This document shows, piece after piece, positions 19,523 to 59,879 of a stretch of 64,000 nucleotides of DNA. Within the stretch, counting starts at the first letter, position 1; every line of letters starts with the position of its first letter. The notes below the pieces were generated by a model. That model had not been told where the DNA came from and did no database searches. It saw only the letters and a program-made list of their open reading frames with translations. Source of the stretch: Nemertoderma westbladi (taxonomy: Eukaryota; Animalia; Xenacoelomorpha); the NCBI GenBank assembly GCA_032718475.1, contig JAUCBJ010007607.1, positions 1 to 64,000 on the forward strand, written 5' to 3'. Position numbers and translations under genes: made by a program.

Positions 19523-21391
19523 TATTGGAAGAGACAGTAACAATACCTGCAATATCCTACTGTAAAGTTTGTGAATCAAATTATAAATCCGACCTTCTCA
19601 CCAAAACAGTAAACTCTAAGTAAGCGAATATATTGCAGTATCGATCTCTTATAACCGGTGAGGCAGAAAACAGTCTACGAGCAGACAAACTTCGATAAAA
19701 CAAAATCCCGCGCAGCGAATCCTAAAATCAGGCTGACTCACTGACGGACTAAGGGGCTCGTATACTTTGCCGCGGTGTGATTTATATGGTTGGGCGAAAG
19801 GGACGCTAGCTAGGTACAGAGGCAGAGATTTGGAGATGTCTAACTAGCGGGCAAAGCACAGTACGGACAAAAGTTAATTTTATATATTTTGAGGTGTAAA
19901 TAATTTCTAACGCACGCGTGTGTTAATTCTGAACGGTCTAAGGCAGTTTTGCTCCTTCACATATATAATTACTGGGTACGGTGTGCATTTTACGAATATT
20001 CTAATTTTGTAACCTCTTGCGTATTTCCAGGACTCAAATTCAGGCATAAGGTTAATGCTACGCCCAGAATTCGGCAATTTTAATTTACCAGGCCCCTAAT
20101 ACTAAGAAGAAATGTGTTAGTTTACTACAGTAGGCGTACTGTTACTAATAGCTATCCTGGCGTCCTATCTAGAATTTTAGTCACCTAGGTAGGCTGGGTA
20201 ACTTCCTATCAGGACGTTGGCGGGGACACGGTAGATGTTAGTATATCCCTAATAGCCTCAATTTATTTGCGCCTAGTTGTAAACTGCCCTACCGCCTGAA
20301 CGGTACAATCCCAATTCAGGTGAAAACACAGCAACCCTCCTAGCCTACAAGTTCTAATGCAATGGACACCGTTGTACTGCAAATAGTCGCAAACGCACCT
20401 GTACTTAGCAAGAGTTAGGCGTACAGTTTGCTGCACCCTACCAATGTGTATGCTGCGTACCGGTGTGCCTACGTCCTATCTGCGTACTAGTATCTGCCTG
20501 CTCTCTCTCCCTCCCCCCGTAGGAATGTGAAGGTCTACTGTGGTTTTTTCCTGAATTAAGACAGTACAGTCCCTAAGATGTAATTTTAGGCTCACAGCGT
20601 GTCACTACTTCTACCTTTTGATCTTTGGTCTTACGCTTAGGTAGCAAGGCGTCGAACGCTGTCTAACCTTTCAGGCGATGGGCGAATAACTGAGATGATA
20701 TTGCGGGTTGTCTCTTGTCTACATTCCCGTGATGTTCCCGTTCATTGCTGCGGCCCGATCTCTAGCCGGCCATCCTGTTCTTAAGTGTGTTCACCGTAGT
20801 GAATCATGGTGAAAAGAAAGCAGATAGCGGTATTTCTGAATTTATTGCAGATAATAATACAAAATGTAATCTGAAAACTAATGACAGAATACACAAATAT
20901 CAAATAACTCAGAAGTTAGTGAAGAGTAGAGTGAATAATCTGACTAATGAACAAATCGCACCTTTATATAGCAAATTTGTGCTGCAATCAATCGAGAAAA
21001 TTCTCGATTGTTCTATAGGTTCTAACAGGTTTTTAAAGATAGCTATTGGTCCAGCTAATATATAACTTGCACGACATTGGTTACAATCTAATAACTGCAG
21101 TCTCATTGGTTAATCTAGGTACAAACAAATGCAATTTAATTTGTAGTGGTCAATTTAAATGAGTTGAAATTCTGCACAAAAAATAATTCGCACTTACTAG
21201 GATTCGAACTCAATACCTACTACACATATAATTTCCAACGCTCCACCGACTGAGCTACTGAACCACTTGACTAAAGGTCGTACAATAGATATAATAAATA
21301 CAAATGAGGACTCAAAGTAATCTTTTACAAAGTTAATTCGAATAAAATAAAATTTTGAAAATCCACGGCATTTAGGGAATATAATTCTATA
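19523..21391 (-). repeat. 3' LTR (1869 bp) of BEL element 1
   Basis: Direct repeat of 33929-35837 with roughly ten substitutions by eye and one ~40-bp indel. Element-strand termini TATAGAA...TTCCAATA. Confidence 0.95.
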
Positions 21392-21399
21392 CCGCTCCA
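21392..21399 (-). other. Short polypurine tract (element strand TGGAGCGG)
   Basis: Directly abuts the 3' LTR. GGGAGCGG abuts the LTR of the second BEL element (56813-56820) in the same way. Confidence 0.65.
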
Positions 21400-22317
21400 T
21401 GAAAACAGGATATTATCGTGCATAAAATATACGGTTTTCACCAATAATCAATCAAACTATAGAATACTTAGGGCGTACTTACATATTTACAATTAAATTT
21501 CAAACAATACTTCCTTTCTACATAATGATTCGATACAAAATAATTACAAATTCAAACTTTACGTAGTTAAGGCTTTACTAAGTAAGTACAATACAAATCT
21601 AAATTAAATTCACCAATATAAATCTATTGCATCTCAATATTGCATAAATTCAAGCAAATACAAATAAAATAAATGAAAATCATAAGAAAGGCTCGCGAGT
21701 CTTCCATCTACTATTGCATCTCAAATATTGCATAAATTCAAATAATTACAAATACTTTCGTGCCTAAATGTAGATTGCATAAGTTCGGAATAATTACAAA
21801 TATGAGTCTTTCTAAGCACAAAACTTTCTAACTATAAAACTTTCTAAATACAAAATATAACACTTTACAAATGAAACTATAAGAAAGGCCCACGAGTCTT
21901 CCATCTACTCTTACTTTCTATTTCACTGTAAATACAAATACTGCTTATAAGATATAAATTGCATAATATTCGGAACAATATAAATTGCATAAGTTCGGAA
22001 TAATCACAAATATAAAATATAAATCTTGCAAATATAAATCTTACTAAAGATAAATTCTTACTAAATATAAATCTTTACTAAATATAAATATAAACTGCAT
22101 AAGTTTAGAATAATATAAACTCCTTTGCATCTCAAATATGAAACATAAATCTTTCAAATATAAGTTCCTTCTAAATATAAACTTTCTAAATTTCATAAAT
22201 TCGGAACAATACAAATTGCTTAAGTTCGGAATAAACACAAATATAAATATAAATTCAAATAAATCACAAAATCATAAGAAAGGCTCACGAGTCTTCCGTC
22301 CACCCTTGCCCTCCCTT

Positions 22318-23915
22318 TTATCGTTTTGTTGATCGAGCCCTGCCTCGAAAACTGCGCACAGGTGACTTTGCTCGCGATATGGGACTTGTGGGGCGAGTCA
22401 CTGGTTTCGTTTGGACGTTGAGAGATGGTGCGACTATTTCCTCGCAAATTCGTCTATTTGGCATCCCAAATCCTCGTCCGATTCCTCGTGACCGATCAGT
22501 TGTCACTACAGTTGGTAGAACGTCTGGGAACGCGCGAGAAGCGGACGACGCAGACCCAAGAGTAGCTTGTGCCCCCTTCTGATCAGCTGGTGTATGTCCC
22601 GATCCTCCTGTTGGTTCTCTAGGAAGCGATACCGTATCCCGAGTAATTCGAATGGTCGGCTCAACTCCCTTGCGTTCTTCTATATTAATAGACTTCTTTA
22701 ACTGTTGGCCCACTTTCTGGACCCGTATGATCCTACCCTGTCCGTCCTCCCGAGGGTGACGTGCAGACGGCGCAACCGGAGTGGCTGGTATATTTGTCGC
22801 CTCTAGGACCTCCTCTTCCTCGAATACGCTCGCTCGTATACGTTTGTGGTAAAACGCGGCTCGGTACGCCCATGCAACGGTTAACCAAGCTCCTTTATTC
22901 CGCTTTTCAGTTCGGAAACGATCGAATTCACCATACGTAATGCGATTAACGACTTTCTGAAAATTCCACGTGTTTTTGTTATCCGGGTGAATCTGTAATA
23001 GATACTCGCGCACTACTCGGAATCCACTGTCGTGGGGCAAAATATCGACAACCTCGATAAGTTCGTCATATTGGGGCATAGCGGAGATATATCCTTCCGA
23101 CATCATCGTTTGAGGATTTACCGCCCAAAATCCGAGATGCGCTCTCATCGGAAACCGTCTTCTTTGTGCCGATACATGTTCGTCGGCTAAATCTTCCCAC
23201 TCATCAAATAACTTCCTCACGAGTTTTACAGATTCGTGTTCATAAGGTATGTCTCTTAGTTGGCATTCAGATGCTCGATGTCCTTTTATATTGCAATAAG
23301 TACATTGAGCCATAAATCTCCAGCAAGTATAAAAGGTATGAGACCCTTGATCCCCACACCATCCACAGATTAGCTGAGTCGTAGTAATGTGCTTTCCACT
23401 GCACTTGGTCGAATGATGTCCAGCGACGCCACATTTACCACACATCGTGTTGGCAGGGTACCACACTCGTTCGTATATAAGATCCCCAATCGGTCGAGCG
23501 CTTCCTCCCACACTATAATCGTAATCATCTGGATCTATGAGTTGGTAGGTTTCTGAAGGTTGTACACAAACTATAGCATCTGTTGCTTCAAGTTGTCGAA
23601 TCTCCGTCTGAGATTTCTTCGGGAGGTTCCTTTCTATCTCAAGAAGTTCCTCTAAAGGATCGTCAGTGATCGTAGTAGTTACTTCGAAATCATCACCAAG
23701 GTGACCGATAGGCGCACGCGTCTGCCGTGATTCGTTCGTAACCTCCACGATACCGTCGTGTCATATTTAGTTCTCGCGAGTTTCGCTGTACTTTCTGATA
23801 ATTCCTTTATACCGAATATAGTGTAGTCCTTGGCTCCAAATCTTTCGAATGGCGCTGCTGCCTCCTCTTGGATATCATATCCCCATCTCGGCTCTCCTTG
23901 TATCCCTTTCTCCAT
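22318..23915 (-). CDS. Extra ORF3 in env position: triple zinc-knuckle protein with basic Arg/Ser-rich tail; probable frameshift near 23750
   Basis: CGKCGVAGHHSTKC, CGWCGDQGSHTFYTC, CTYCNIKGHRASEC. ORFs 23915-23679 and 23748-22318 overlap in different frames. Splice acceptor at 23947 with a CTAAC branch point upstream. Confidence 0.75.
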
Positions 23916-24581: not shown

Positions 24582-27500
24582 TTATTTACTAGTATTAGGT
24601 GGAGATTTGTAGTCTCCAGACTCGTTACGAGTCTCTTCAAGAAGTACGAGACGTTGAGTCGGTCTGTCAACTGTACGACCGTCAATTGTCCGTACTGTCA
24701 CAGTTCTTGTCACTCCATCCATAGATGGATGTGTGGCTAAAATTACACCTGTTATCCAGAAGCGTCTTTTTAGATTCACTTCCGCTAACAGCACGTGATC
24801 TCCCGGCTTTAATGCGCGGGTGTTATTGTACCAAGTTGTTCTGGCAGAAATAGAGGGCAAATAATGGTTTTGCCATATTTCCCAGAATTTGTTAGCCAGT
24901 AGTTGCGTGATTTTCCACGCTTTTCTACCGTAGCTGTCGCTTTCTGTTGGAATAGAAATAGGCATTAATGTAGTCGGTGCCTGCATAAGCAGGTGTGCAG
25001 GTGTTAATGCAAACTGGGATTGTTTGTCATCGGGTACTAATACTATTGGTCTAGTATTTAGTATTGCCTCGATTTCAACAAACAGTGTTGTCAGTTGGTC
25101 GTCTGTCAATATGTGGTTTACTGGAATGACTTTTGCCATTGCCGTCTTTATAGATCTAATCAATCTCTCCCAGACTCCGCCTCTCCATGGACTATCTGGA
25201 GGATTAAACTTCCAAACAATCTTGTGAGGTTGTAGTTCGTTTGAGATTTGATCATGATCTAATTTCTTAAAGGCTCTAGCAATCTCATTTCGAGCACCAA
25301 CAAAGTTTGTCCCTTGGTCTGAGTACAAGCATTTTACTAGTCCGCGTCTAGCGATAAATCGCCGCAATGCTAGTATAAACGCGTTGGTGGAAAGATCCAT
25401 CACACGTTCAATATGAACTGCCCTACTGGACATACATGTGAAAATCAGTCCCCAGCGTTTTACTAGTATACGTCCACGTTTCGTATGTATGGGACCAAAG
25501 CAATCAATTCCAGTCTCTGTAAAAGGTGGTCTGAATGCTTGAAGTCGTGCTTGTGGAAGTTCACTCATTTCTTGGGTACCTATTCTAGAATGTACCTTTT
25601 TACAAATAATACACGTACGTGTCACTGAACTTAACGCTTTACTGGGTCTAATTAATACAAATCTTGTACGTAAGTAGGAAAGACAGTGGTGTCTTCCAGC
25701 GTGTTTCAGATGTAAATGTGCGTCCAGTATCATTGCACGTTGTAGTTCGTGATGTTGCGGTATTATTATTGGGTATCTAAAGTTTGTGTTAAAGTCAATG
25801 TTTTGAAGCCGAGATTTATGACAAATTAAGCCATTATAAATTATCGGACTCCAACTCAATATTGGTGACGACTTGATTGGTTGACCTTGATTTATAGATG
25901 TGAATTCGCGCGCGAAATATCGCAGTTGGTAATGGCGAATTAATTTAATTTCACACCTGTCAATCTCAGCCAATGTAAGTCGACGTGTAAAGTCGCGTTT
26001 GCCTTTTAACGTATTGTACAAAACGTACAATCCACGCTAATTTTCGGCAGGCATTCGTCCAAGAGTCTGTTAAGTTTACAATACGGTCGACGTAAGTATT
26101 TGTGACGTCATCAGGTAAGTCAATGGAGATTTTGGAAGGTTTTGATTTACTAGAAGGGCCCACGGGTCCGCCGGTAAGTATTCCCTTGTTGACTGTTGAT
26201 CCGTCCGGGTCTACAAGTAATTTGTCCTTCTTCGTCTTCTTACCTTGATTGTCAGTACTTTGTAAGTCGATCGTTAATGGTGGTTTGAACTCTATGGGGT
26301 CAGTGGGTTTCGGTAAGCTTATTTTTCTGCCGATATTAATCCCAGGTTTCACCATAGGTTGCAAGTTCGGTATGTCTCTTGAGCGCAAAGTAACACCTGT
26401 ATTTACATTAGCGTAGGTACTACCCACATCTGTAATACATGAGGTTTCACCGTGCTTATGGTTGCTCAAGTGCGTCAAAATTTTGTAGTTTGTCAATAGA
26501 AGGCCGCTCCAATAGGGAAACTGCGGCTTTATTGTTTGTCAATATGTTACTAGTGTCTGGTATATCATTTTGTGACATGTCTGGTAAAATGTTTCGCGGA
26601 ACATCCGGCGAAACATCTAGTGACGTGTCTGGCAAAACGTCTGGTTGGCCGTCTAGTAACGCGTCTGGTGATACGTCTGGCGATATGTCTGGTGTAGAAA
26701 GGCTCGCAAGTCTTCCTCTCTTGACCTTTGAAGTTATATCTTTCCATTTCGCCTTCGGTTTCTTCTTGAGTTTAGCCGCCGTTGTCTTTTTCTTTGCCTT
26801 CCCCTTTTTTGATTTCTTGATTTCGGCGTCCTTAGGGATAGTGTTAGAATTGTTGTCATATAACGGTGGCCAATCTTGTGTCGATTTCTGCAAGAATTGG
26901 GGTCCGTGTTGCCAAAATTCTTTGTTCTCCGGTTTACAGAATTCCTCAGGCATCATTCCTCGCGACGCAATATCGGCTGGGTTTTGTGGTCCGGGACAAT
27001 GTCGCCAATCTTCTTTTATTGAACGGTCTAGAATTTCCGCGCGACGGTTAGCTACGAATGTCTTGAATTCAAGTGTGTCGTTGTTTATGTAAAATAAAAC
27101 CAACGTCGCGTCAGTCCAATAAAATATCTGTAAACTTGACTGTAGTTCTGTCTGTATAAGGTTCACAATTGTGGTTGACAGTGTTGCGGCTTGTAGCTCA
27201 GCTCGTGGTGTCGTCATATACTTAGTAGGCATTGTTTTTGCCTTAGAAGTAATGAGCGAAACATCGAATTCTTCTGAGTCTACTTGTCTGCGCAAGTACG
27301 CTGCCACACCAAAACCGTTGTCACTGGCGTCAGAAAAACAATGTAATTCCAAGTTGTCAGGAAATGTTGTTTGTAATGGAAAGTAGACTCTGGGTATGGA
27401 ATAATCCTCTAGCGAAGATAATTCTGCCTCCCAGGTCTTCCATAAGTCCACTTGGTCTGATGAGATCGGCTCGTCCCATGTCAGTCCATCCTTCCAAATA

Positions 27501-29587
27501 CTGCGCATATAAATGCGGGCTTGCAGTATTATTGGACTGATGAATCCTAATGGATCGAACAATCGGCTCAATTTTGACAAGCATGATCTCTTTGTCAGTG
27601 TGTTTTCTTGACTGTCCAGTCTCACCTTTACTCGAAAGTTGTCCGTGTTTGGGTCCCAAAAGAGCCCCAACACCTTGGTCGTCGGTAGTGGTTCGAACTC
27701 TAGGTCTATGTCACCACCTCCACGCTCAGTCGTTCCAAATGAGTCTACTAATTCGGCACTGTTTGAGGCGAATTTGGTGAGGTTAAAACCTCCGCCCGCT
27801 AAGCAGTCCCGTAATTGATGTGCTACTGTTGTAGCACGTTCTACTGTGTCGCAACTCTGTAAACCGTCGTCGACGTAAAAGTCACGCTCCACAATCCTAA
27901 TTATCTCTGGGTCATATAAATGTTTCTGATCCCTAGCGGCTTGTTTTAGGGCGTACATCGTACAGTTTGGGCTGTCTCTGGCACCGAAAACGCGAACTTG
28001 CATTTGGTAAGTTGCCGGTGGTAGACTTAAGTCTCCTTCCGGGTACCAGAGGAACCTCAAACTGTCTCTGTCTTGCTCTAACGCTTTCACTTGGTGAAAC
28101 ATAGCTTCAACGTCACAAGTAAAAGCTACTTGACGCTGACGGAAGCGCATAATCACCCCCATAAGATAATTATTCATGTTTGGTCCATCCATCAACTCGC
28201 TATTTAGGGACATTCCCTCAAACAGAGCCGTACAGTCATTGACTACACGTACTTTGTCTGGTTTGTCGGGGTGTCTCACGTAGTGATGTGGCAAGTAGTA
28301 CGTCTGGTCAGTTACTATCTCTGGGTTAGTCATTCGGATAGCGTATCCCTTGGTCAAATACGTCTCCATCTGAGTGTTGTACTGCAGATGGGCTTTCTCG
28401 TCCTTTAATAGACGTTGCCGTATTGAGTGTAGACGTCTTAAAGCTAGTGGGTAGTTATTTATAAGTTTAGGACTTTGGCTACGCCATAACATCCCCACCT
28501 CATAATGTCTGTCTTTCGTCTGGCGGATAGTATCTTCCATGATCCTCAAAGATTGTTTCTCCTGTTCCGACATACATGGTTCGTAGCTACCAGGTTCAGC
28601 TGTATCTTGTTCTAACCACCTGATAGTCTTCTCCGTTAATTCTTTGTCCAATGCGGCTTGTTCCACTTGATGATTTCTCAACGCGTCATCATCGATATCG
28701 ACGGGCATTGTTGAGGTTGTTGGGGTAGGTAGACTCGCAAGCCTTCCGGCGTTATCATCTGTCGTCGATGGAATCTCTGGCTGACTCGTCTTCTCCCCAA
28801 GTTCTAAACTCACCTGGTGGATTAGCTGCTCCTTGTGACTTATCATACTAGTTACACGTCTGTCATGTCTTGTATGTAAGGTAGTATGGTCCACGTCGTG
28901 TGAAAAGGAATGAATTGAATTTGTAGTTAATAAACTACATGTACTTTGTACATCGTCTTCCTCGTCACTTATGTCTAGTGTGCGCACAGGCGCTCGAGTA
29001 TACCACCCTATCGGCGTTCTACAGGCGTATGCGTTTCCCGCTACGACTGCCGATGGTCTGGTTTCCCACACTTGATGTAGATTGAATTGGTCTGTCCCGA
29101 TCAGCATTGCTACCGATCTATAATTGACAGGACATTCAGGTACACCAAGGTTTCTGAAATACTTACGGTCCTCCAAGGATTGTTCTGGGACAGGACCTAG
29201 TAGGTTACTAAAGTCTTTTGTGGCCGCAAAAGTCAAATCCTTGAAGGGTAACAAAGACCTCTCCTTTTCGCTGTGTTGCGATTTTGGAAGAAGAGTGTCT
29301 AAGTTTAACTTAACTCGTGTCACTGGTATTGCATGTTGTCCGTGCATACTACTTACGGTATAGCTGACGCGCTTACCTTGTTTGAGATCCGTCACTACAT
29401 CAGCTATCTGTTCATCCACGTAGCTGTGAGATGAGGCTGAATCCAGGATAGCGTAGATTCTCTTGCTCCCCTTTGTGCCAGTAATCTTAATCGGAATTAC
29501 ACTGAATCCCTTTAGTTGGTCAGTCGTCAGAAGCGCGATCGATGGTTGTTCGTCTCCATCAGAATATACGTCGTCGTCTTCTGACTA
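24582..29587 (-). pseudogene. pol: BEL/Pao pol: aspartic protease, RT, RNase H, low-complexity linker, integrase; frameshifts near 26470 and 26000
   Basis: YAILDSAS (about 29440), YLPHHYV, FYVDD, LHCFSDAS, WRHCPGPQNPADIASRG, HHCC region, GIDCFGP, SDQGTNFVGA, PWRGGVWERLIRSIK. In frame with gag across a TAG at 29585-29587. Confidence 0.93.
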
Positions 29588-32500
29588 TTCGTCCGACGAT
29601 CCGGATTGTTCTGAGAAGCAATCCTTTATATGTGTCACAAAGGTCGGAGTCATTTTCGATTCTCGAATTTTGTAGGCCGCATCACATCTCGCTGCTGCTT
29701 CCGGGTGTTCCCTGGCGAAGCGTTTTGTCGGCGTGTGGCTGTCTGTGTGGAGCAGACCGTCGTGGTTGCGTCCACAGGATGGACAAGTGTCGGTATTTGG
29801 GCAATCTTTACGGACGTGTCCGTGTCGCGTACACCGCCAACAAGAGTCCAATGGCCGTATCTGCAGCCGTCGTTCTTCCGAATTTAACTCGCGAAACTGT
29901 CGACAACCTCTCAACTTGTGACCGATATACCGCTTGCCCAAATGCTCGCAGTATTGGCAGCCACTGAAGTCGGTACTGAGTTGCTGTCTCGTCTGTTTTG
30001 TCCCAATGGGCGCAGATACCCTACTACCGTCCGAGAATTGTCGTGATTCCGTCGGTGTGGCGTAAGTGGCCGTCTTAGTGGATGTTGTCTGGGGTTTTTG
30101 TCGGTTTGAGGATGGCAAGGTGATTCCTTCTGCCACGATGTGCTGGTCAGTGTAGTTGGATCGAGTTTCTACTACTGCTTCCCTGGATATCAAAAGGTAC
30201 ACATCCTCCAGTTTTAAGAATCCACCCCGCTCTTCCCGCTGGTATTCGATCTTTCTCCACTCCCGACGAAGTCGATGGTGGAGTCGTCCTATGATCTTTA
30301 ATAGGACTGTAGGGGTATTCCCGTAGTCAAGTTGTCCAATGGATCTTAAAGTAGTGATAGCGTTCTTTATCTCGTCAGCCAGTTTCAATAAGTCGACGGG
30401 TTTAGTAATAGCCCCTCCCTTACAGAGTTCCTCTATCACTGACCTGGCCATGCTGACTGTACCTCCGTATATCGAAGTTAAACGATCGTACGCTAGTTTG
30501 AAAGCGTCCGGTACACCAACGAAGGTCTCCGCCAAACGTTTAGGTTCTCCTGACAACGTTTGAAGCAGGTAATTAAACTTCTCCCGTGATGTAAAGGCGC
30601 ACACGGCGATCTGAGATTCGATATAGTCTACGAAAGTGTGCCAGTGTTTTGAACTACCGGAAAACTTCGGTGGTTGTTGTACCGGCAATCCCTGTCTGGC
30701 TGCGAATTTCGCTATCTCCTCGGCAACGTTCAGAGTTTCGCGTCCTTGGTTGGTAATCTGGTTGATATCCCTTCTTGGCGCTTTTCCCTGATATGATGTG
30801 TGTTTTGAAGGTACCGGTCTTTGTGGTTCCTTCGGGTGTCTATTGTGTTCGAATTCAGTGTTCCTCGAACTATCGGTTTGAACTTCCTCCAGACGTTCCT
30901 CAATCCGGGCCAACTTGTTGACAATGTCGGCGAATTGTTGTGTACTGATTGCGTCCGTTGGTTGTAACGCCTTTTGTGTTGGTGTATTTTGTGGAGGATT
31001 GTCTGCAGTCTGAACGCTCGCGTTTGTATTCATCGGCCGCCCCTGTTCTAAATACCTCGCGTTTCGGGTAATCCGATTCGCTCGAAGTACTACTATCATC
31101 TGGATATGGTGGTCGACGTGCTCGCGTCCGTTGCGTCGTACGAATTCTAACGTTTCGCTTTGGAACATCGTCCACTGGTCTCCGTTGTTCGGTAGGCTCA
31201 CAAGTCTTCCTCGAAGTCGTAGATTGCGATGTAAACTGGTTGAACGGTCGCGTATCCACTGGTCTCCGTTGTTCGGTAGGCTCACAAGTCTTCCTCGAAG
31301 TCGTAGATTGCGATGCAAACTGAACCGGTGGGCGAATGACAGCATTTGAATCAACTGGCCTTGTAGGTCGAAACGTCATTGGGTAAGCGTAGTGTGTAAC
31401 GGGTTTAGGTGTCGACGGTGGACTCACCTGTTTAGTCGTCAGTAATACAGGTTCGACTAATAAACTACTACGATCTGTAATCGGCGGGTTACTTACCTTG
31501 ACTTTCGGAATAGGCGATGACGTTGCTCTTGGCGGTGTAAACTTGTCCGGAATAACAAACCTGTGTTCCGTCGCACCATGGATAGGAGAAATATTACTAC
31601 TACCAGCAATCGAAACAGGTTCCTTAGTCGTAACCGGTGCAAACATAGGAGTTACTTGTGGGAATCGTTGACACAAGTCTTTTACTAATTGTCGTTCCCG
31701 TCCGGGTGCTCCTACGCTTCCTTCCTTCTTTCGTTCCTGAATTTGGCGATGTCTTACCTCTAACTGGTCCAAATCATGTCCGTCACGAGATCTCATCGAT
31801 CGATCGCGGGCTTGTAGATCCAGATCTTCCTTCGCGTTGGCTAATTCTCTCGCCTTCTTCCCGAGTTCGAAATGAAGTTTAACTTCCTTCTCGCGTTGTT
31901 CCGTCTGTTGTTGTTGCGCCTCGAACTCCGCTTGTCGTATAGCTGATTGAGCCTTTATTTGCCGTTTTTTCATCTCGGCTCTCGCTTCTGAAACTAACCT
32001 TTGTCGTTCTAGCTCGGCCGCTGCTGCTGCCGCCGCCGCTTGTCGCTCTAACTCAGCCACTGCCGCTGCCACCGCCGCTTGTCGCTCTAACTCAGCCGCT
32101 GCCGCTGCCGCCGTTTGTTGTGCAATGTCCAACTCTAACCTTTCCATCTCGGCTGCTTCCAACTCGGCTTGTTCTTGCAGATGAGAGATTCTTGCAACAT
32201 TCGCAATGCGTAGTTTCTCTTCTTGTACGGCTGCTTGTGCCATTAGCAGTTGAGTTTGTTCCTCCATCTCCTGTTGTTGTCTGTAGAGCTGCTGTTGTCG
32301 AGCAATTTCTGACGTAGCCATACTCACCTCGCCAATTTCGCTGCGAATACTCACCAGTGATTGATTTAGTGTTCCCGGTGCCAGTTCGATTTGTGCGAGC
32401 GAAGTTTCCCTCGTAGCCTCCGGCACGGTTTCCCAATCTCCGACGTCCTCGCCGCACATACGTAAGTGATCCGTCAGGTGTTTCAATTGTCCATCCAGTC

Positions 32501-33119
32501 GGTACAGTTCCTGTTCTTCCTCGGGTTGCAATAATTCGTCTGAAACTGACTCACCTAACAACTGGTCCGCTTGTTCCTGTTGTATCTGCCTAATCGTCGA
32601 CTTAAACTGAATCAGTTTCTCTCTAGCGATCATTAGTTTCTCGAGGATTCTAAGTTGAGTATCCATGTCCTGTCTCTGTCTAGCTAGATCTTGTAGACCA
32701 ATAAGGTTATCTACGGACTTGTGTGCTCTACTTTGTACTCTAACCTGGAGGGTGTAGAACTCGAATCGAGACATCGGAGCGGTCAACTCGTTTAATATGC
32801 GTTGGCCTTCTCCAATACTCCTGGTTATATGCGCCATGTATCCTCCGACGCTTCTAACCACACTTTCTGTGCTTCCTGCTGAACTTACCATGTCCGTTTC
32901 CCTATATCTAGGTTGCGGAACAGTTAGAAAGTCCTCGGTCCTGCCGTCGCCTCGTACTACGGCATCCGGTACTCCCGTTGGATGTACTGGTGACGCACAC
33001 GGTGTAGGTTCGGTAGGCTCGCGAGTCTTCCCCTGTTGTTCTTCCGCTGCTGACTTATCCGCGTCACATGAGTCATAGTCGGTAGGTGTATTCTTCGTAT
33101 AGTCTTGTTTGTCACTCAT
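29585..33119 (-). pseudogene. gag: BEL/Pao gag with Ala/Glu/Gln coiled coil, capsid-like region and Cys/His knuckles; one frameshift around 31000-31100
   Basis: ORFs 33119-30900 and 31354-29585. PPKFSGSSKHW...EKFNYLLQTLSGEPK (DUF1759-type), CWRCTRHGHVRKDC, CPSCGRNHDGLLH. An 84-bp tandem duplication at about 31170-31325. Confidence 0.9.
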
Positions 33120-33202
33120 TTCGGTAGTTGTAAGTCAAGTAAAGTGAGTGTCAAAGTATCAAACTTACCGTATTTGTATAAAACGGTACTAATTACAGTC
33201 AT

Positions 33203-33328: not shown

Positions 33329-33917
33329 CAAATAAATCGGATAACGATATGCGTTATCAAAAGGTAAATTAAATACAATAATACGGACTAATTCAGCAAT
33401 GAACAAAGAAATCATACGGAATGCATAAATACTTGAGACAGTGGAACCCACAATAATTTTAACTAATACGGTAATGCCTAACTTATTTATGCAACTTTTC
33501 GAACTCACCCACTCCAATAATTCTCCAGAAAAACAGATTCCCAGATACAAACCGAACGTGAACCTTTCCGTTTTTAACGTTGCGGACGAAGCGCGATTTT
33601 CCCAACCAAAGTTGTTGAGTTATCTATCTCCCAAACTTGCTAAACACGGTCTTGCTCCCGTTACAGTCTAGAAATGAGTTCTGAATCCTGAAAAACAAAA
33701 GAGTTAGGTTTTACTTTTACGAAAATTTTGTACCGGTACAATATGGTATTTAAACCCTTTTAAACACCGGTATTCAATTCCAAAATATATTTTACACGCG
33801 GTTCAAATCAAATTTTATTTCAAAAAATTAGCACTTAGCTAATCAAATATAAACTTTTACCTCAAAATACAAAATTTTCAAATAACTTTAGTCCTACCGA
33901 ACCGTAGTTCAGTAAAA

Positions 33918-33928
33918 CACATTCCTAC
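33918..33928 (-). other. Primer-binding-site position: GTAGGAATGTG, non-tRNA type, complementary to the element's own LTR
   Basis: Immediately follows the 5' LTR; lacks the TGG expected for pairing with tRNA CCA; exact reverse complement at 34966-34976 and 20519-20529. Confidence 0.7.
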
Positions 33929-35837
33929 TATTGGAAGAGACAGTAACAATACCTGCAATATCCTACTGTAAAGTTTGTGAATCAAATCATAAATCCGACC
34001 TTCTCACCAAAACAGTAAACTCTAAGTAAGCGAATATATTGCAGTATCGATCTCTTATAACCGGTGAGGCAGAAAACAGTCTACGAGCAGACAAACTTCG
34101 ATAAAACAAAATCCCGCGCAGCGAATCCTAAAATCAGGCTGACTCACTGACGGACTAAGGGGCTCGTATACTTTGCCGCGGTGTGATTTATATGGTTGGG
34201 CGAAAGGGACGCTAGCTAGGTACAGAGGCAGAGATTTGGAGATGTCTAACTAGCGGGCAAAGCACAGTACGGACAAAAGTTAATTTTATATATTTTGAGG
34301 TGTAAATAATTTCTAACGCGCGCGTGTGTTAATTCTGAACGGTCAAAGGCAGTTTTGCTCCTTCACATATATAATTACTGGGTACGGTGTGCATTTTACG
34401 AATATTCTAATTTTGTAACTTGTAGTTCCAATACTCACGAATGATAAGGTTCCTTCCCCTCTTGCGTATTTCCAGGACTCAAATTCAGGCATAAGGTTAA
34501 TGCTACGCCCAGAATTCGGCAATTTTAATTTACCAGGCCCCTAATACTAAGAAGAAATGTGTTAGTTTACTACAGTAGGCGTACTGTTACTAATAGCTAT
34601 CCTGGCGTCCTATCTAGAATTTTAGTCACCTAGGTAGGCTGGGTAACTTCCTATCAGGACGTTGGCGGGGACACGGTAGATGTTAGTATATCCCTAATAG
34701 CCTCAATTTATTTGCGCCTAGTTGTAAACTGCCCTACCGCCTGAACGGTACAATCCCAATTCAGGTGAAAACACAGCAACCCTCCTAGCCTACAAGTTCT
34801 AATGCAATGGACACTGTTGTACTGCAAATAGTCGCAAACGCACCTGTACTTAGCAAGAGTTAGGCGTACAGTTTGCTGCACCCTACCAATGTGTATGCTG
34901 CGTACCGGTGTGCCTACGTCCTATCTGCGTACTAGTATCTGCCTGCTCTCTCTCCCTCCCCCCCCGTAGGAATGTGAAGGTCTACTGTGTTTTTTCCTGA
35001 ATTAAGACAGTACAGTCCCTAAGATGTAATTTTAGGCTCACAGCGTGTCACTACTTCTACCTTTTGATCTTTGGTCTTACGCTTAGGTAGCAAGGCGTCG
35101 AACGCTGTCTAACCTTTCAGGCGATGGGCGAATAACTGAGATGATATTGCGGGTTGTCTCTTGTCTACATTCCCGTGATGTTCCCGTTCATTGCTGCGGC
35201 CCGATCTCTAGCCGGCCATCCTGTTCTTAAGTGTGTTCACCGTAGTGAATCATGGTGAAAAGAAAGCAGATAGCGGTATTTCTGAATTTATTGCAGATAA
35301 TAATACAAAATGTAATCTGAAAACTAATGACAGAATAAACAAATATCAAATAACTCAGAAGTTAGTGAAGAGTAGAGTGAATAATCTGACTAATGAACAA
35401 ATCGCACCTTTATATAGCAAATTTGTGCTGCAATCAATCGAGAAAATTCTCGATTGTTCTATAGGTTCTAACAGGTTTTTAAAGATAGCTATTGGTCCAG
35501 CTAATATATAACTTGCACGACATTGGTTACAATCTAATAACTGCAGTCTCATTGGTTAATCTAGGTACAAACAAATGCAATTTAATTTGTAGCGGTCAAT
35601 TTAAATGAGTTGAAATTCTGCACAAAAAATAATTCGCACTTACTAGGATTCGAACTCAATACCTACTACACATATAATTTCCAACGCTCTACTGACTGAG
35701 CTACTGAACCACTTGACTAAAGGTCGTACAATAGATATAATAAATACAAATGAGGACTCAAAGTAATCTTTTACAAAGTTAATTCGAATAAAATAAAATT
35801 TTGAAAATCCACGGCATTTAGGGAATATAATTCTATA
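33929..35837 (-). repeat. 5' LTR (1909 bp) of BEL element 1
   Basis: Direct repeat of 19523-21391; element-strand AATAAA at 34707-34712; Inr-like TCACATT at 34977-34971. Confidence 0.95.
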
Positions 35838-36329
35838 ACGATCTATAAACACGTTGTGGGTGGGGGGCTCCGCGCAGTACGAGAAACAATTAGCCACGAG
35901 CATCGCGAATCTTATACAATACCACGAAATACTCCAAGTGCTGCGCGAAGTTTGTCTCTCACGTTTTATGCGAAGCTTGTACAATGCATCATTGTATTTT
36001 ACCTGTCAAGTGTCTAATATCTGCCACTACTTATAGTCAATGTAAGTATGCTGCCCGCTCTGTCACGAGTTAGGGAATTAAAGGGTCTTCATTTCTTTGA
36101 GCATCTCCTCTATCCAAAGATATTGTCAAATGTTATGCTCTAACTCGAAATTAATAAAATGAAATACAGAGTCTTTTTAGAAAGGGATTTAAAACTTTAT
36201 AGGCTTACAACTTTTCTAAAACGGAAGATCTTATCATCAACGACATAACAAAGATGCATCTATGATGTGGGGCGAGCAACATTGTAGGCGAACCTCTATA
36301 ACATACGAGACAATTTATGTCATTTGGAA

Positions 36330-37681: not shown

Positions 37682-39241
37682 TTAAGGGTTTAAGGGTTTG
37701 ACCAGGGTCATATCAATAATGGGAGCCACTCTATTGTCTGAGCATCAGGGGAAACATATACATTATCATTACATTATATTCATTGTCTTTCCATTATATT
37801 TACATTATATTAACTTATTTCCATTATAGCGATATTTACTATACCTAACTATTATACATAAAAACAAAATCTACATAACTTAATTAACAGTTGAACATAA
37901 TTCTAGAATATATATTCTAGAATGACCAACAACAATAAACGGCTTACATATTAATTAAAGATTGGCAAAACACATCGTCTATTTGAAAGTAACAATTCTT
38001 TTTAAAAGTACTGTAATGTTTAATGATACGAACTCCATCACCAACATAACTTTTATTTAATAATTGATCTTAATGCAGTTAAAAGTTTCTAAATAATATT
38101 TATACACTTTGTATTTAAAACGAAATAAATACATACTGGGTAATATGATAATATCATTATAGTTATGTACCCTGTAAACTATTCATAATTGCCCTTGCTA
38201 AATATTTGATCTATAAGTAGTAAGAGTATGCCCATTTCTGCGACAGTTAGTCCTACTTCACACCTTGGGTGTTAAGTAGGTCATTAATTAATTAAACAAT
38301 TAATTAATTGATCGATTAAACAATTAATTAATTGTTTAATCAATCGATTTGTATCAAATAATGTTGCCAAAGGCAATTTAATTTGACACAAATCAATCAG
38401 ATAGGGACGCGAGATGAATGAATTGTACTATAACAAATGAAATGTACAATACAATAGGCACTGTACATTACAATATACAATACATTTGTATTATTTTTGC
38501 CATACAGTAGGTAAAGGTAGAATTAAATATAAACATGCGAGCGGGGCCCAAAACATAAATTACCCCCACTCGAAAATAAAGTGGACCAGTTTGGCCCTGA
38601 GTCATCCCTCAATAATCTGCGGTCGTTGGGCTCTTATTAGACGTAGCAAGATTAATCCCTTTGAATCCTATACTGTACGTCAACGCGTAGGTGGGGCCTG
38701 CCACAGAGTTTAAATTATTCAAACCTACAGCTTCGCTATTACATCAATTCGTCCGAGAAATTATAAGAAACATCTGCTCTTGCAATAGGTTGCATTCTTT
38801 CGCGTTGTACTTTATGAAGCAGTCCACGCGCATAATTAAATAAAGCCTTCTTTTAATACATAAGTTATATACAGTTTATCTTCAATTTATTGAATTTGTT
38901 TTTATTTACAACCCTAATTGTTCTACTGTATTATAATTTATGTTTTATAATACCAAGCTATATCCTGTTAATCTTTATTCATTTTATTTGTACTGAGGTT
39001 TTCGAGGGCGCTGTTTCCAATGGTCCTATTCTCAAAACGATCTAACCTACTGTATAATTAATTACTTAAGTCTGCGAGGTATGCGTAAGTAACAAATCTC
39101 GTTTAACAGTTTTCCTTAAAAACTATGAAGCTATATTGCTTAAGAGTTCTGAGGGGCGAGCCATGAGGCAAGATGTTTGAGACTTTTTTAGATATATTAT
39201 TACTTAATTTTGACCCCCAGATCGAACGAAAACTGCCCTGG

Positions 39242-39313
39242 GTCCATGTGAGGATCGAACCCACGACCTACTGGAGATGTGAATTCAAAGCAACCACTAC
39301 ACCAAGGTGGAAC
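39242..39313 (-). ncRNA. tRNA-like Pol III unit in the left TIR
   Basis: Mirror copy of 42601-42672. Confidence 0.45.
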
Positions 39314-39381
39314 AGTAACGTTCGAATTTGTTCGTTAACGTTCGAATTTGTAAGACTCTGATTTAAGAACTGAGGCACTCC

Positions 39382-40308
39382 CCACAACCACAGTCACAGC
39401 CACAACCACAGCCACAACCACAGCCACAACCACAGCCACAGCCACAGACACAGCCACAACCACAGCCACAACTACAGCCACAGCCACAACCACAGCCACA
39501 GCCACAGCCACAGCCACAGCCACAGCCACAACCACAGCCACAACCACAGCCACAACCACAACCACAACCACAGCCACAACCACAGCCACAGCCACAGCCA
39601 CAACCACAGCCACAGCCACAGCCACAGCCACAGCCACAGCCACAGCCACAGCCACAGCCACAACCACAGCCACAACCACAGCCACAGCCACAGCCACAAC
39701 CACAGCCACAGCCACAGCCACAACCACAGCCACAGCCACAACCACAGCCACAGCCACAGCCACAACCACAGCCACAGCCACAACCACAGCCACAACCACA
39801 GCCACAACAACAGCCACAGCCACAGCCACAACCACAGCCACAGCCACAGCCACAGCCACAACCACAACCACACCACAGCCACAGCCACAGCCACAGCCAC
39901 AGCCACAACCACAGCCACAGCCACAACCACAACCACAGCCACAACCACAGCCACAGCCACAGCCACAGCCACAGCCACAACCACAGCCACAGCCACAGCC
40001 ACAACCACAGCCACAGCCACAGCCACAGCCACAACCACAGCCACAACCACAGCCACAACCACGGCCACAACCACAGCCACAGCCACAGCCACAACCACAA
40101 CCACAACCACAGCCACAGCCACAGCCACAGCCACAACCACAGCCACAGCCACAACCACAGCCACAGCCACAACCACAGCCACAGCCACAGCCACAGCCAC
40201 AACCACAGCCACAGCCACAACCACAGCCACAGCCACAGCCACAGCCACAGCCATAACCACAGCCACAGCCACAGCCACAACCACAGCCACAGCCACAGCC
40301 ACAACCAC
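39382..40308 (+). repeat. (CCACAG/CCACAA)n hexamer array in the left TIR
   Basis: About 154 units of two variants; 1-nt phase slip near 39871. Confidence 0.98.
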
Positions 40309-40638
40309 TTTATTATCAAATACGCCTGAGAAAAATTCAAGAAACATCTGGTTTGCAATAGATTATTCTTTTTCACAACTCCATTCTAGCCTCCCTCTAT
40401 AATAGCCCCCATTCACTGCATTCCCATTCATTCTCTAATTTTCATTTTTAAAAGTTTTATTTATTTTAATAAAAGTTTTATTTATTTAAAATTTTGTAAA
40501 ATCATTTATCGAAAATTCAATACTATTAATTGACATTGCTATATAATGCCTAGTTATGAAAAATGTACGGTTTGTGATAAAGAGATGAGACGAGACAGTA
40601 TATCCCGACATATGAGTATACATAGAAAGGAAGGTGTA

Positions 40639-41324
40639 ATGGAACCATTACCAAAAAAAAAAAAAAAAATAATGATATTTTTAGTGAAGAAGAGAACAAA
40701 AAGAGAGTTGAGAGTGATTTTCTAGAGATTAAACAAATGATGAAACATAAATTCGAGAAAATCATGAATATTTTGAAAAATATACAGAAACAGCCACACA
40801 GTGAAAAGGACGATGACAGTGAGGAAGATGATAAATCAGAGGAAAGTGAGAATGATGAAACGGAGAGTGAGATAGAGAAAGAAGAAAATGAGAGTGGTGG
40901 TGAAGAAAATGAGAGTGGTGGTGAAGAAAATGAGAGCGAGAAAGAAGTCGAGGAACATGAAAGTGGTGAGGATAATGACACAGATAATGAGGAGATATTA
41001 AGACATGTATTAGGAAATAAAAATAAATTGCAGAAAATAATTAGACAATTGAATGAAATGCAGAAACATTCGCATAAGGAGAGTGATAATGATGGAAATG
41101 GGAGTGATGAGGATGAATCGGAGGAGAGTAGCGATGACAGTGAGGAAGAATCAAAGGAGAGTAGCGATGACAGTGAGGAAGCATCAGAGGAGAATGACAA
41201 TGAAAATGGACAGAAAATCAGAGTAGGGAATGGAGAAGTTATATCTCCTGCAACTGTTGTATATCGACCTAGGATTATGAACAGTAACAGTCGTACAGTT
41301 AGTGCGAGACAGTGCAGAAAATAA
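40639..41324 (+). CDS. Highly acidic Glu/Asp/Ser-rich protein with two short helical repeats, in the spacer of the foldback element
   Basis: ORF 40737-41324. ATG 40639 (MEPLPKKKKK) would join the frame if the A17 run at 40653-40669 were A18. TATATAA at 40540 and AATAAA at 41332. Confidence 0.55.
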
Positions 41325-41560
41325 TTAAACAAATAAAGTCAACTTGATCCTGAGTTCTGAGTCGTTTTGTGTGGTGGTGGGTATTTGTATTTGTAATTTT
41401 AATTTGTGTAATGGACTAATATATATTATATATTATAAACCACTATAAATGATCAGTCCTGTCTGATCCTATTTTAAATGCATAATGAATGAGTAACCAA
41501 AACATCAAATTAGTTAAACATTTTGACAACAGATAAACAAATATTCTCCTGTGGGGAGAA

Positions 41561-42533
41561 GTGGTGGCTGTGGCTATGGCTGTGGCTGTGGTTGTGGCTG
41601 TGGCTGTGGTTATGGCTGTGGCTGTGGCTGTGGCTGTGGCTGTGGTTGTGGCTGTGGCTGTGGTTGTGGCTGTGGCTGTGGTTGTGGCTGTGGCTGTGGC
41701 TGTGGCTGTGGCTGTGGCTGTGGCTGTGGCTGTGGCTGTGGTTGTGGCTGTGGCTGTGGTTGTGGCTGTGGCTGTGGCTGTGGCTGTGGTTGTGGTTGTG
41801 GTTGTGGCTGTGGCTGTGGCTGTGGCTGTGGCTGTGGTTGTGGCTGTGGCTGTGGTTGTGGCTGTGGTTGTGGCTGTGGCTGTGGCTGTGGCTGTGGTTG
41901 TGGCTGTGGCTGTGGTTGTGGCTGTGGCTGTGGCTGTGGCTGTGGCTGTGGCTGTGGCTGTGGCTGTGGTTGTGGCTGTGGTTGTGGTTGTGGCTGTGGC
42001 TGTAGTTGTGGCTGTGGCTATGGCTGTGGCTGTGGTTGTGGTTGTGGTTGTGGTTGTGGCTGTGGCTGTGGCTGTGGTTGTGGCTGTGGCTGTGGCTGTG
42101 GTTGTGGCTGTGGTTGTGGCTGTGGTTGTGGCTGTGGCTGTGGTTGTGGCTGTGGCTGTGGCTGTGGTTGTGGCTGTGGCTGTGGTTGTGGCTGTGGCTG
42201 TGGCTGTGGTTGTGGCTGTGGCTGTGGCTGTGGTTGTGGCTGTGGTTGTGGCTGTGGCTGTGGCTGTGGCTGTGGCTGTGGCTGTGGTTGTGGCTGTGGC
42301 TGTGGCTGTGGTTGTGGCTGTGGTTGTGGCTGTGGCTGTGGTTGTGGCTGTGGTTGTGGCTGTGGCTGTGGCTGTGGTTGTGGCTGTGGCTGTGGCTGTG
42401 GCTGTGGTTGTGGCTGTGGCTGTGGTTGTGGCTGTGGTTGTGGCTGTGGTTGTGGCTGTGGCTGTGGCTGTGGCTGTGGCTGTGGTTGTGGCTGTGGTTG
42501 TGGCTGTGGTTGTGGCTGTGGCTGTGGTTGTGG
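41561..42533 (-). repeat. (CTGTGG/TTGTGG)n hexamer array in the right TIR
   Basis: About 160 units, inverted relative to the left array. Confidence 0.98.
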
Positions 42534-42600
42534 GAGTGCCTCAGTTCTTAAATCAGAGTCTTACAAATTCGAACGTTAACGAACAAATTCGAACGTTACT

Positions 42601-42672
42601 GTTCCACCTTGGTGTAGTGGTTGCTTTGAATTCACATCTCCAGTAGGTCGTGGGTTCGATCCTCACATGGAC
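42601..42672 (+). ncRNA. tRNA-like Pol III unit (SINE head or pseudo-tRNA) in the right TIR
   Basis: A box TGGTGTAGTGG 42610-42620, B box GGTTCGATCC 42653-42662, T-arm GTGGG-TTCGATC-CTCAC, partial acceptor stem; no convincing anticodon arm. Confidence 0.5.
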
Positions 42673-45233
42673 CCAGGGCAGTTTTCGTTCGATCTGGGGG
42701 TCAAAATTAAGTAATAATATATCTAAAAAAGTCTCAAACATCTTGCCTCATGGCTCGCCCCTCAGAACTCTTAAGCAATATAGCTTCATAGTTTTTAAGG
42801 AAAACTGTTAAACGAGATTTGTTACTTACGCATACCTCGCAGACTTAAGTAATTAATTATACAGTAGGTTAGATCGTTTTGAGAATAGGACCATTGGAAA
42901 CAGCGCCCTCGAAAACCTCAGTACAAATAAAATGAATAAAGATTAACAGGATATAGCTTGGTATTATAAAACATAAATTATAATACAGTAGAACAATTAG
43001 GGTTGTAAATAAAAACAAATTCAATAAATTGAAGATAAACTGTATATAACTTATGTATTAAAAGAGGGCTTTATTTAATTATGCGCGTGGACTGCTTCAT
43101 AAAGTACAACGCGAAAGAATGAAACCTATTGCAAGAGCAGATGTTTCTTATAATTTCTCGGACGAATTGATGTAATAGCGAAGCTGTAGGTTTGAATAAT
43201 TTAAACTCTGTGGCAGGCCACACCTACACATCCGTTGACGTACAGTATAGGATTCAAAGGGATTAATCTTGCTACGTCTAATAAGAGCCCAACGACCGCA
43301 GATTATTGAGGGATGACTCAGGGCCAAACTGGTCCACTTTATTTTCGAGTGGGGGTAATTTATGTTTTGGGCCCCGCTCGCATGTTTATATTTAATTCTA
43401 CCTTTACCTACTGTATGGCAAAAATAATACAAATGTATTGTATATTGTAATGTACAGTGCCTATTGTATTGTACATTTCATTTGTTATAGTACAATTTAT
43501 TCATCTCGCGTCCCTATCTGATTGATTTGTGTCAAATTAAATTGCCTTTGGCAACATTATTTGATACAAATCGATTGATTAAACAATTAATTAATTGTTT
43601 AATCGACCAATTAATTAATTGTTTAATTAATTAATGACCTACTTAACACCCAAGGTGTGAAGTAGGACTAACTGTCGCAGAAATGGGCATACTCTTACTA
43701 CTTCTTCTATATATTAGATCTTCCATTAAAAAAAAAGGCTGTATAAAATTTTACAATCTTTGGAAACCCGTTCTAAAGACTCTGCATCTGCAATCTCTGC
43801 ATTTCATTTATTTGATCTCGTGTTGGAACATAACGTTTGACCTTATCTTTGGATAGAGGCTCAAACAAATGAAGACCCTTTAATGTTCTGACTCGTGACA
43901 GTGTGATATACATACATTGGCCTCTGAAGCCTGTATCAGATATCATGACATGATGTAATGTCAACCCTTGGACTTTATGACAGGTCAATGAAAAAGCTGG
44001 GGATAATGGGAATTGGGTCATATTTGATTTTAGTACATAATTCCCCGTAATTCGAACATTGATGGCCTTGTTTGCAGGGAATACAGGATACACACCCTGA
44101 GGTAAACCTTCAATTTGAAACTTTGCACCTCGAATCTTGACATATATGCACTCTGGGAGAGATTTGACACGGTATATAGTTTTCGTGTAATTTAATGACA
44201 TCTTCTCTTCAATGTATGTTTCTTCATTATCTGCAAACTGGATATGATAAATCCAACCAACAGTTCCATTAGCAATACCCAAGTTGACAGCCAGGTTGTG
44301 ATTAATGATTACTGGCATACCAGCAAACATGTCAAGCACTGGTGGCAGTCCATTGCATTGATCATCGCGTAGGCATCGGATCTGTTTAAATTTTGTTGCA
44401 TTAGGTGGAGTAATTTCAGCACAAACTCGAATAATGCGGCCATTGTGTGCAGCGGTTATGCTTCTATTTATCTGGTACCTATTGGTATTACTTGAAACAA
44501 TAACTGGGCAGAAATCTGCATTAACATCTTTGCAATTATCAGCCGTAATGACCTGTTCATTAATTTTATCAATGACATCTTGGTTCCAAACACCAACACG
44601 AATATCATCTAGCATATTTCCCCAACAAGGGTCATCAAGATATCTCATATTTTCCTTCAATATAACAACTTTATTGAATTGATCCAGAGAAGACGTCCCT
44701 CTAATGCACTTGCATTTTTCTTCATTTCATCTTCGTGCTTTGACAGCGATATGGCTGCCACTGCCGCTAATTGATAGAAATCACCCATACAGATGATATT
44801 TAGACCACCAAATGGCTTATCGACGTTGTCCATTGCATCCTGCAAGAATTTGTTAATCTTTGCTAAAAATGCACATGATACCATCGATACCTCATCAATT
44901 ATGATCAGTTTAACACCACCGAATTTTTCTCTTAATTGGTTGCGCACTTTATTTGTAAACTTATTATAACCAGGTCTCATAGACAAAGCATTGTGAATTG
45001 TTGTACCACCAATGTTAACACTGGCTACCCCAGTTGGAGCCATAACTTTAACAGCTCTTGGACTTCCCCAACATGCTGCTAAAGTTCGGAAGGCATCAAC
45101 AGTACGACTCTTTCCAGTCCCACCAGCTCCACCTACAAACATGAGCAATTGAGAATCAGATGGCTTCGAACAAATACCATTCAAAAGCGTTTTCCCACCA
45201 CAAATAAATATCTCAGTTTGTTTATTATTCATA

Positions 45234-52510: not shown

Positions 52511-53131
52511 ATTCTCGTGTTGCTCGTATTCCATTTCGCATCTTCCATAGACGTTGAAAATTCTCGGCAGGCGTTTCTAGCTGTCGTCTCAGCCACATTC
52601 GATCTCTATTTCTGACTTTTCCAACTCGTTTCTGAAATATAATTGCACAAACAATATTTATTTCATATGTTTTAACCATGGAATACTAAATATAGACGGA
52701 ACCGCATTAGTATTATTTTTTCGGCGCCGAATTTTTTTTAATAAAGTGGTATTATACCATAAAAAGGTCAGAAAATCGACTGGAGCGTTTCCATGGAAAC
52801 TGGGCAAACAGAAAATTTCGGGGACCGTTCCGCCCATGGCTACATTGTTGGATTTTTAACTGTACTTTTATGCTAGATAGCATATTCAGATTTTGTTGTT
52901 TTGAATGTTCGAGAACGGAGAACGTGTTCGCTATCTATAGATTAAAATAAAAATTTATGTTCTACAATATTTTTTTATTTTAAAAACATGTTGTAATTTT
53001 TGATATGTTTTGTAATTGTTGCAAAAAATAATATTATAGTCATCTATTTAGCTTTTTTTTAAAAAGCATATCTTGTCGTTATTTCGGTATTGTATAGATT
53101 GTATTAAACACTTACATGGGACTTCGCGCAT

Positions 53132-59800: not shown

Positions 59801-59879
59801 TACATAGTAATACATACATAAATATAAAAATAATAAAATAATATAAAATAATAGAGTCACACACCCACTCCATATGTTG

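Follow-up and report, generated by a model that had tools for sequence, protein, structure and literature searches.

The BEL/Pao element and its surroundings

The window, the whole 64-kb stretch of DNA analysed here, holds on its minus strand a 16.3-kb BEL/Pao retrotransposon, and the finding that we report sits at the border between its 5' LTR and its leader. The main parts of the element, in the direction in which it is read, are as follows.

35838..35842 (second copy 19522-19518), minus strand: target-site duplication ATCGT, 5 bp
33929..35837 (35837-33929), minus strand: 5' LTR, 1909 bp, ends TAT...ATA
24582..33134, minus strand: gag-pol in five overlapping or adjacent frames, with frame breaks and one stop
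22318..23760, minus strand: extra 480-codon frame between the integrase and the 3' LTR, with three CCHC-like knuckles
21392..21401, minus strand: polypurine tract adjoining the 3' LTR
19523..21391 (21391-19523), minus strand: 3' LTR, 1869 bp, 99.6% identical to the 5' LTR outside a 39-nt gap

The aligned LTRs differ by eight mismatches in 1868 columns and by the one 39-nt gap, and this near-identity implies a recent insertion. Their termini are TAT...ATA, not TG...CA. The gag-pol region encodes DUF1759, a triple Cys-His box, a protease with LDSAS, a reverse transcriptase (RT) with YVDD, Peptidase_A17/RNase H, an integrase and DUF5641; its RT-RNase H frame spans 29584-26456. DUF1759, Peptidase_A17 and DUF5641 score above their curated Pfam cut-offs and the integrase zinc domain slightly under its own, and the BEL/Pao-specific domains stand in PR-RT-RH-IN order. 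The translations match the motifs listed for Pao/BEL elements (PMC554778): the triple Cys-His box, two protease motifs (LLDxG-like and LIG), YVDD and DAS; the first Cys-His knuckle has a longer spacer than the listed motifs. All of the best homologues carry PF05380, at amino-acid identities of at most 43%, and those that are named come from cnidarians, molluscs, echinoderms, a barnacle and fish.

The LTRs, target-site duplication and polypurine tract agree with a BEL/Pao element as well, and the BEL/Pao identity in the original prediction is borne out by DUF1759, Peptidase_A17, DUF5641 and the domain order. A Pfam search found no chromodomain in the element, and its pol is not of the Ty3/gypsy chromovirus type. 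Its coding sequence places it in BEL/Pao, outside the Tf1/sushi group. The extra 480-codon frame has no Pfam match, and an Atlas search gave only leads below 0.9, to CCHC proteins; its product could be a putative RNA chaperone for the long-range duplex described below.

U3 also contains a tRNA-like piece (35640-35710, minus strand) with motifs that we take to be A-box-like and B-box-like, followed by a T run. ARAGORN and Rfam call no tRNA there, and the piece is possibly a captured SINE or a Pol III promoter. The primer core lies outside it.

Several other mobile elements share the window. A second BEL/Pao element (54937-64000, minus strand) has an internal deletion, so that gag-PR runs into the RNase H end with no RT; its 3' LTR (56812-54937) has TG...CA ends, and a GGAGCGG tract is common to both elements. 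A foldback-like element (38215-43703) has 2.1-kb inverted arms of 97% identity, in part composed of 12/18-bp tandem units; the 1.3-kb centre that they enclose carries an acidic low-complexity frame and gives no Pfam match. A Helitron (43773-52685, minus strand) encodes a PIF1 helicase, Helitron_like_N and DUF6570, and a 69-bp tandem array in it encodes STPR repeats. Two degenerate RVT_1-bearing elements on the plus strand (514-3292 and 5644-11869) are probably non-LTR retrotransposons.

A primer site complementary to the element's own LTR

The sequences at issue lie directly after the 5' LTR and within the LTRs themselves.

33918..33928, minus strand: primer-binding site GTAGGAATGTG, directly after the 5' LTR, without TGG
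34966..34976, minus strand: predicted self-primer core CACATTCCTAC, the exact 11-nt complement, with a predicted cut after 34966
20519..20529, minus strand: second copy of the primer core CACATTCCTAC, in the 3' LTR
34930..34965, minus strand: purine-rich arm 3' of the primer, which pairs with the LTR end 33965-33929 to form a clamp helix
33929..33965, minus strand: LTR-end arm of the clamp helix, including TCTCTTCC at 33940-33933
34982..34987, minus strand: CAGTAG, arm of an extension helix 5' of the primer, which pairs with TTACTG 33915-33910

The sequence confirms the starting observation of the original prediction, namely that the 11 nt after the 5' LTR lack TGG and have an exact complement at 34976-34966 and 20529-20519. 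Within the 64-kb window GTAGGAATGTG and CACATTCCTAC occur only at these sites, and the primer-core copies of both LTRs pair equally well with the primer site. At a fixed position the chance of an exact LTR complement is about 1e-3 (13 of 12,526 internal 11-mers and 67 of 78,356 other 11-mers in the window); this empirical value is twice the 5e-4 that had been quoted. When five offsets and spliced options are allowed, 3 of 150 random positions score equally well.

Thermodynamic comparison singles out the same site. When 45-nt windows of the element were paired with the primer-site region, the 15 best all fell on the primer-core site, in one LTR or the other, with duplexes of -33 to -39 kcal/mol, compared with a first percentile of -23.7 and a median of -12.8. 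The duplex between primer core and primer site is the strongest in the element, with an exact 11-bp match at offset 0. The second helix that had been proposed beside the 11-mer, with the U5 end at 33940-33933, is present too, in more than one register: the purine run 34965-34949 can pair with TCTCTTCC in several alignments, and the clamp helix as a whole reaches -21 kcal/mol, at 1% of the null for this element. On the other side, 5' of the 11-mer, an extension helix of 6-7 bp can be formed with the bases that follow the primer site (p = 0.04 in this element); this CAGTAG/TTACTG pairing was absent from the original prediction.

Self-complementary primer sites across related families

A scan of metagenome contigs yielded 78 loci, 42 with a long-range direct repeat and 36 without; a scan of viral contigs found no relative. 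Fifteen of the loci with repeats were set aside as assembly overlaps, as coding duplications (for example L074) or for lack of a recognisable terminus, and two more (L047 and L021) duplicate tested families and stand outside the counts. The testable relatives number 25 of the 78 loci: 12 with both LTR ends fixed, and 13 with only the LTR start fixed, for which the end was scanned. Three of these 13 duplicate earlier families by tree, leaving 22 distinct families.

All 12 relatives with fixed ends have a self-complement of 10-15 nt at offsets of 0-4 after the LTR (nulls 0 or 1 of 300), and in every one of them TGG is absent from the first 8 nt after the LTR. Five of them match contiguously and seven only across a GT..AG intron in the LTR. 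Among the 13 loci with scanned ends, a narrower rule recovered the finally accepted site in 10; after the three failures the rule was widened to offsets of up to 6 and any AG acceptor, and under it all 13 score 10-15 nt, with nulls of 0/40 in eleven, 1/40 in L005 and 4/40 in L007. The original prediction had proposed to test whether primer site and LTR match change together among relatives, and so they do: self-complementarity is kept in 25 of 25 testable relatives, the letters differ, and TGG stands at the primer site in none.

No two of the 22 families share a primer site, and every site matches the LTR of its own element at an offset of 0-5 from the LTR end. Six are contiguous; the other 16 (L015, L017, L023, L029, L049, L051, L070, L002, L005, L007, L025, L040, L042, L057, L061 and L073) match only at the exon-exon junction of an LTR intron of 66-426 nt. 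Two regularities lie outside or go beyond what was scored. The donors of 14 of the 16 spliced families are GTRAG, when the scoring demanded only GT[AG][AGC]; and the primer sites, whose start letters played no part in the score, begin with GT (16 families, as in the window) or AT (6 families). All predicted primers, in the 22 families and in the window, end in AC or AT. Of the 12 relatives with fixed ends, 10 have a poly(A) signal downstream of the primer, at a distance of 12-98 nt, as needed for strand transfer after the cut, and in L062 and L049 TATA boxes precede the primer start or splice donor by 124-141 nt.

The flanking helices differ in how widely they are shared. Pairing 5' of the primer core, compared over 13 elements, has an own mean of -7.3 against a cross mean of -4.7 kcal/mol (permutation p = 0.0002), and is individually below 0.05 in 6 of the 13. 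The clamp helix is significant in none of the 12 relatives tested, and as a Tf1-like trait of the lineage it was rejected. In the RT tree, contiguous and spliced types are interspersed; the window element has a long branch and none of the tested loci is closely related to it, the relatives being at most 43% identical in amino acids.

Probable transcripts, splice sites and family copies

The signals that bear on the RNA of the element are these.

35386..35416, minus strand: TATA box TATATAAAG (35416) and initiator-like TTAGTCAG (35393-35386), probable start at about 35391-35387
35108..35116, minus strand: splice donor AAG/GTTAGA, intron from 35113, joint in run X4
34997..35012, minus strand: candidate proximal acceptor TTAATTCAG/G, from sequence, 21 nt before the primer
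34707..34712, minus strand: AATAAA downstream of the primer, needed for R to include the cut site
33687..33712, minus strand: distal acceptor with CTAAC branch-like motif, pyrimidine tract and CAG/G, exon resuming at 33687

The motifs that we take to be a TATA box and an initiator both lie about 415 nt upstream of 34976, TTAGTCAG following TATATAAAG by 25-29 nt. The LTR AATAAA noted originally at 34712 is present, and a second AATAAA lies at 35292, upstream of the primer. If the latter were used for genomic RNA, the primer would be left outside R, so that genomic RNA must read past it. The idea that the primer is the poly(A) end of the element was considered too. It was rejected, as the stretch 10-30 nt upstream of 34966 contains no signal and the signals of 10 of 12 relatives lie downstream.

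Run X4, labelled 'DNA?', contains a GT..AG joint from 35113 to 33688 that skips 1426 nt and is absent from X1 and X3; the exon resumes upstream of the gag ATG at 33119. The spliced form starts upstream of the 11-mer and contains neither primer nor primer site, and therefore can only be mRNA. We infer that X4 is probably RNA because it leaves the unique flank uncovered and because its private differences over 34880-35130 are all T>C and on one contig (six absent from X1 and X3, two nearly so). Clusters of T>C on the plus strand (A>G on the element strand) at 34072-34525 and 34911-34998, in single X4 contigs and absent or nearly so in X1 and X3, resemble the product of A-to-I hyper-editing of LTR RNA. 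Run X4 also shows a loose end at the LTR end; it combines two contigs (agreement 0.65), and we discarded it. Run X5, guessed to be RNA, has zero cover over 34856-35103 and 33740-33863 and was not counted as evidence.

The long-range helix is sensitive to where the RNA begins. Global folding gives it a probability of about 1 for RNA that starts at 34976 or 35000 and of 0 for starts at 35200 or 35391, from which forcing the helix costs 12.9-19.2 kcal/mol. Removal of a candidate 116-nt intron, from the donor at 35113 to the acceptor at 34997, cuts this cost from 12.9 to 0.8 kcal/mol, against 4.6-22.7 kcal/mol in 11 control deletions. This intron would enable the helix in the folding model, but is only a lead, because X1, X3 and X4 contain no joint for 35113-34998 and folds of 1.5 kb are unreliable. 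An acceptor-like motif in the 3' internal region of the second BEL/Pao element (about 58475-58447) closely resembles the used acceptor of the first (33722-33687).

In two DNA runs the summed depth is about 1e5 on the LTR and about 100 on the unique flank, and the family is therefore high-copy. Within the 11-mer, family copies in X1 and X3 show just one variant that exceeds 2%, a C to U change at 34974 with about 44% of depth that keeps a G-U pair with the primer site; the flanks of the 11-mer carry several substitutions and indels. As support for pairing this variation is weak, because most transitions are wobble-compatible. Depth is about tenfold lower at 35228-35410 in both deep DNA runs, and most family copies differ from this copy in that stretch, which holds the initiator and the upstream AATAAA.

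Interpretation and alternatives

We consider it very probable that the element primes its own reverse transcription in some form, a reading of the sequence that is well supported because all testable relatives have self-complementary primer sites. A more specific account, in which the primer is the internal copy in the 5' part of the RNA, is in our judgement reasonably probable. From what is observed directly (the complementarity, the missing TGG and the same relation in 22 related families) it would run as follows. Transcription would start at about 35390, downstream of the TATA box. Splicing from 35113 to 33688 would give an RNA that has lost primer and primer site and serves as mRNA; RNA that keeps both, unspliced or short-spliced, would be the genome, polyadenylated downstream of the primer at the equivalent of AATAAA 34712 in the 3' LTR. 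Its 5' primer copy would then fold onto the primer site across about 1 kb, with helices clamping both sides. A nuclease, by analogy with Tf1 the RNase H of the element, would cut after ...UAC at 34966 and free a 3'-OH, from which RT would extend for about 1040 nt, as far as the cut, and then transfer to the 3' R copy. Against this account count the zero probability of the helix in RNA that starts at 35200 or 35391, the AATAAA at 35292, the clamp helix that reaches significance in no relative, and the evolutionary distance of those relatives.

The original prediction took the 11-mer to be the first 11 nt of the transcript, as in Tf1. Its tRNA-free self-priming is supported and the proposed start at 34976 is not: there is no TATA motif within 100 nt upstream, the TATA/initiator pair at 35416/35391 (missed at the time, like the AATAAA at 35292) and the donor at 35113 both lie upstream, and 5' pairing is enriched in relatives. 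A strict Tf1 mode could be kept if a second start at 34976 made the genomic RNA, with its first 11 nt as the primer, and the TATA start made only spliced mRNA. The initiator-like TCACATT that overlaps 34976 and the ready folding of RNA from 34976 or 35000 would suit this, and alternative starts do separate primer-bearing from primer-less RNA in Tf2, according to the accessible part of PMC5341516. We nevertheless think it unlikely, given the lack of a TATA motif and the pairing that extends 5' of the 11-mer both here and in relatives; moreover, the primers of 16 families span an exon junction, so that the RNA must begin upstream, in exon 1. Another copy of the element's own sequence might prime instead, either the 3' R copy, after a cut at 20519 or with its end there, or, in trans and in the manner of a tRNA, a short transcript of the LTR alone. 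The equal pairing of the core in both LTRs allows this, a trans or 3' source would escape the folding cost of the long unspliced 5' leader, and a separately spliced LTR transcript would explain why splice-built families retain the intron in their DNA. The clamp helix would serve a 3' copy too, but it is significant only in this long-LTR element, which fits the closing of a long loop within one molecule, and we regard this form of priming as improbable as well.

More distant is the idea that the duplex is regulatory, a switch of translation, packaging or splicing, with a host RNA, for example a tRNA fragment, as the actual primer. The ICTV profile gives tRNA-Arg or tRNA-Gly priming for the family (PMC8742986), and half-tRNA priming without TGG is known in copia lineages, in the available portion of PMC6317226; a small set of host RNAs, however, would not fit 22 different sites that each match their own LTR, and this reading is in our view quite improbable. 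A chance match in a long LTR is hardly credible: a single 11-mer with flexible offsets does arise at 3 of 150 random positions, but chance would also have to supply the flanking helices, the shared AC/AT primer end and the match in 25 of 25 relatives.

Returning to the internal 5' copy as primer, the relatives invite a broader and much more tentative proposal, that a large marine BEL/Pao lineage may have swapped tRNA priming for a splicing-gated internal self-primer. Removal of an intron would build the primer in most families. In the window element the donor at 35113 would choose between the far acceptor, deleting primer and primer site to give mRNA, and the near acceptor at 34997, removing a competing stretch and arming the duplex to give the genome. 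If so, the choice of splice site decides which RNA is translated and which is copied.

Relation to known priming systems

In Tf1, a flanking stem to the LTR end accompanies the 11-nt core, an arrangement also seen in the BEL/Pao element. As in Tf1 and Tf2 of S. pombe, Tj1 of S. japonicus and the Tf1/sushi chromoviruses, there is no tRNA site and the primer site complements LTR-derived RNA. Unlike Tf1, which belongs to Ty3/gypsy, this element is of the BEL/Pao superfamily, its primer likely lies about 400 nt inside the transcript and is not its first nucleotides, and the loop is about 1 kb; most of its relatives build the primer across an intron, and they do not conserve the flanking stem. In Tf1/Tf2 a cut by RNase H is required to free the primer, as the accessible parts of PMC4600332 and PMC5341516 describe; in the BEL/Pao element the cut is predicted by analogy.

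Self-priming has been shown for Tf1 and proposed for Tf1/sushi, for Tcn1 (gypsy) and for the copia TAR group (TAR/Houba/Osr-1), according to the available text of PMC6317226. For plant Tcn1 and TAR/Houba/Osr-1, as here, it was inferred from primer-site complementarity; these belong to other superfamilies, and that text mentions neither a splice-built primer nor a BEL/Pao case. With canonical Belpaoviridae (Semotivirus; Achilles, Sinbad) the element shares a triple Cys-His Gag, PR-RT-RH-IN order, YVDD and a polypurine tract. Those elements are described as having an 18-nt tRNA site, LTRs of 0.2-1.2 kb and lengths of 4.2-10 kb, in contrast to the missing tRNA site, 1.9-kb TAT...ATA LTRs, 16.3-kb length and extra CCHC frame found here. 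The ICTV profile describes an 18-nt tRNA-Arg or tRNA-Gly primer site for Belpaoviridae and calls their replication poorly understood (PMC8742986); for Achilles a tRNA-Tyr site is given in the accessible part of PMC4580426. Neither the window element nor any of the 25 relatives has TGG after the LTR, and the ICTV-described site is absent from them. On sequence grounds we read this as a departure from the description and not from the family, because membership rests on proteins.

The main texts of PMC554778, PMC3118150 and PMC6238403 contain no discussion of the PBS, tRNA or self-priming, and these PBS and self-priming terms are absent from PMC2774666. Where self-priming appears in the available portions of PMC3601003, PMC5443660 and PMC5445492 it concerns chromoviruses or Tf1, and those of PMC8220671 and PMC3286476 add nothing further on priming. 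Overall, self-priming in BEL/Pao is not described in the literature searched, which includes few subscription papers, early BEL papers or Repbase notes, so it may have been mentioned before. For a C. elegans BEL element it was reportedly once proposed that it carries its own primer RNA, for which the search gave no confirmation.

A widespread tRNA-free BEL/Pao lineage, if real, would mean that self-priming occurs in all three superfamilies of LTR retrotransposons, and it bears on the proposal, in the accessible part of PMC3601003, that hairpin priming preceded tRNA priming. The predicted cut site is exact, and the family that carries it is high-copy and apparently transcribed. If the primer is internal, and in most relatives put together by splicing, reverse transcription would start in a different way from that of Tf1, and self-priming would release these elements from the supply of tRNA.
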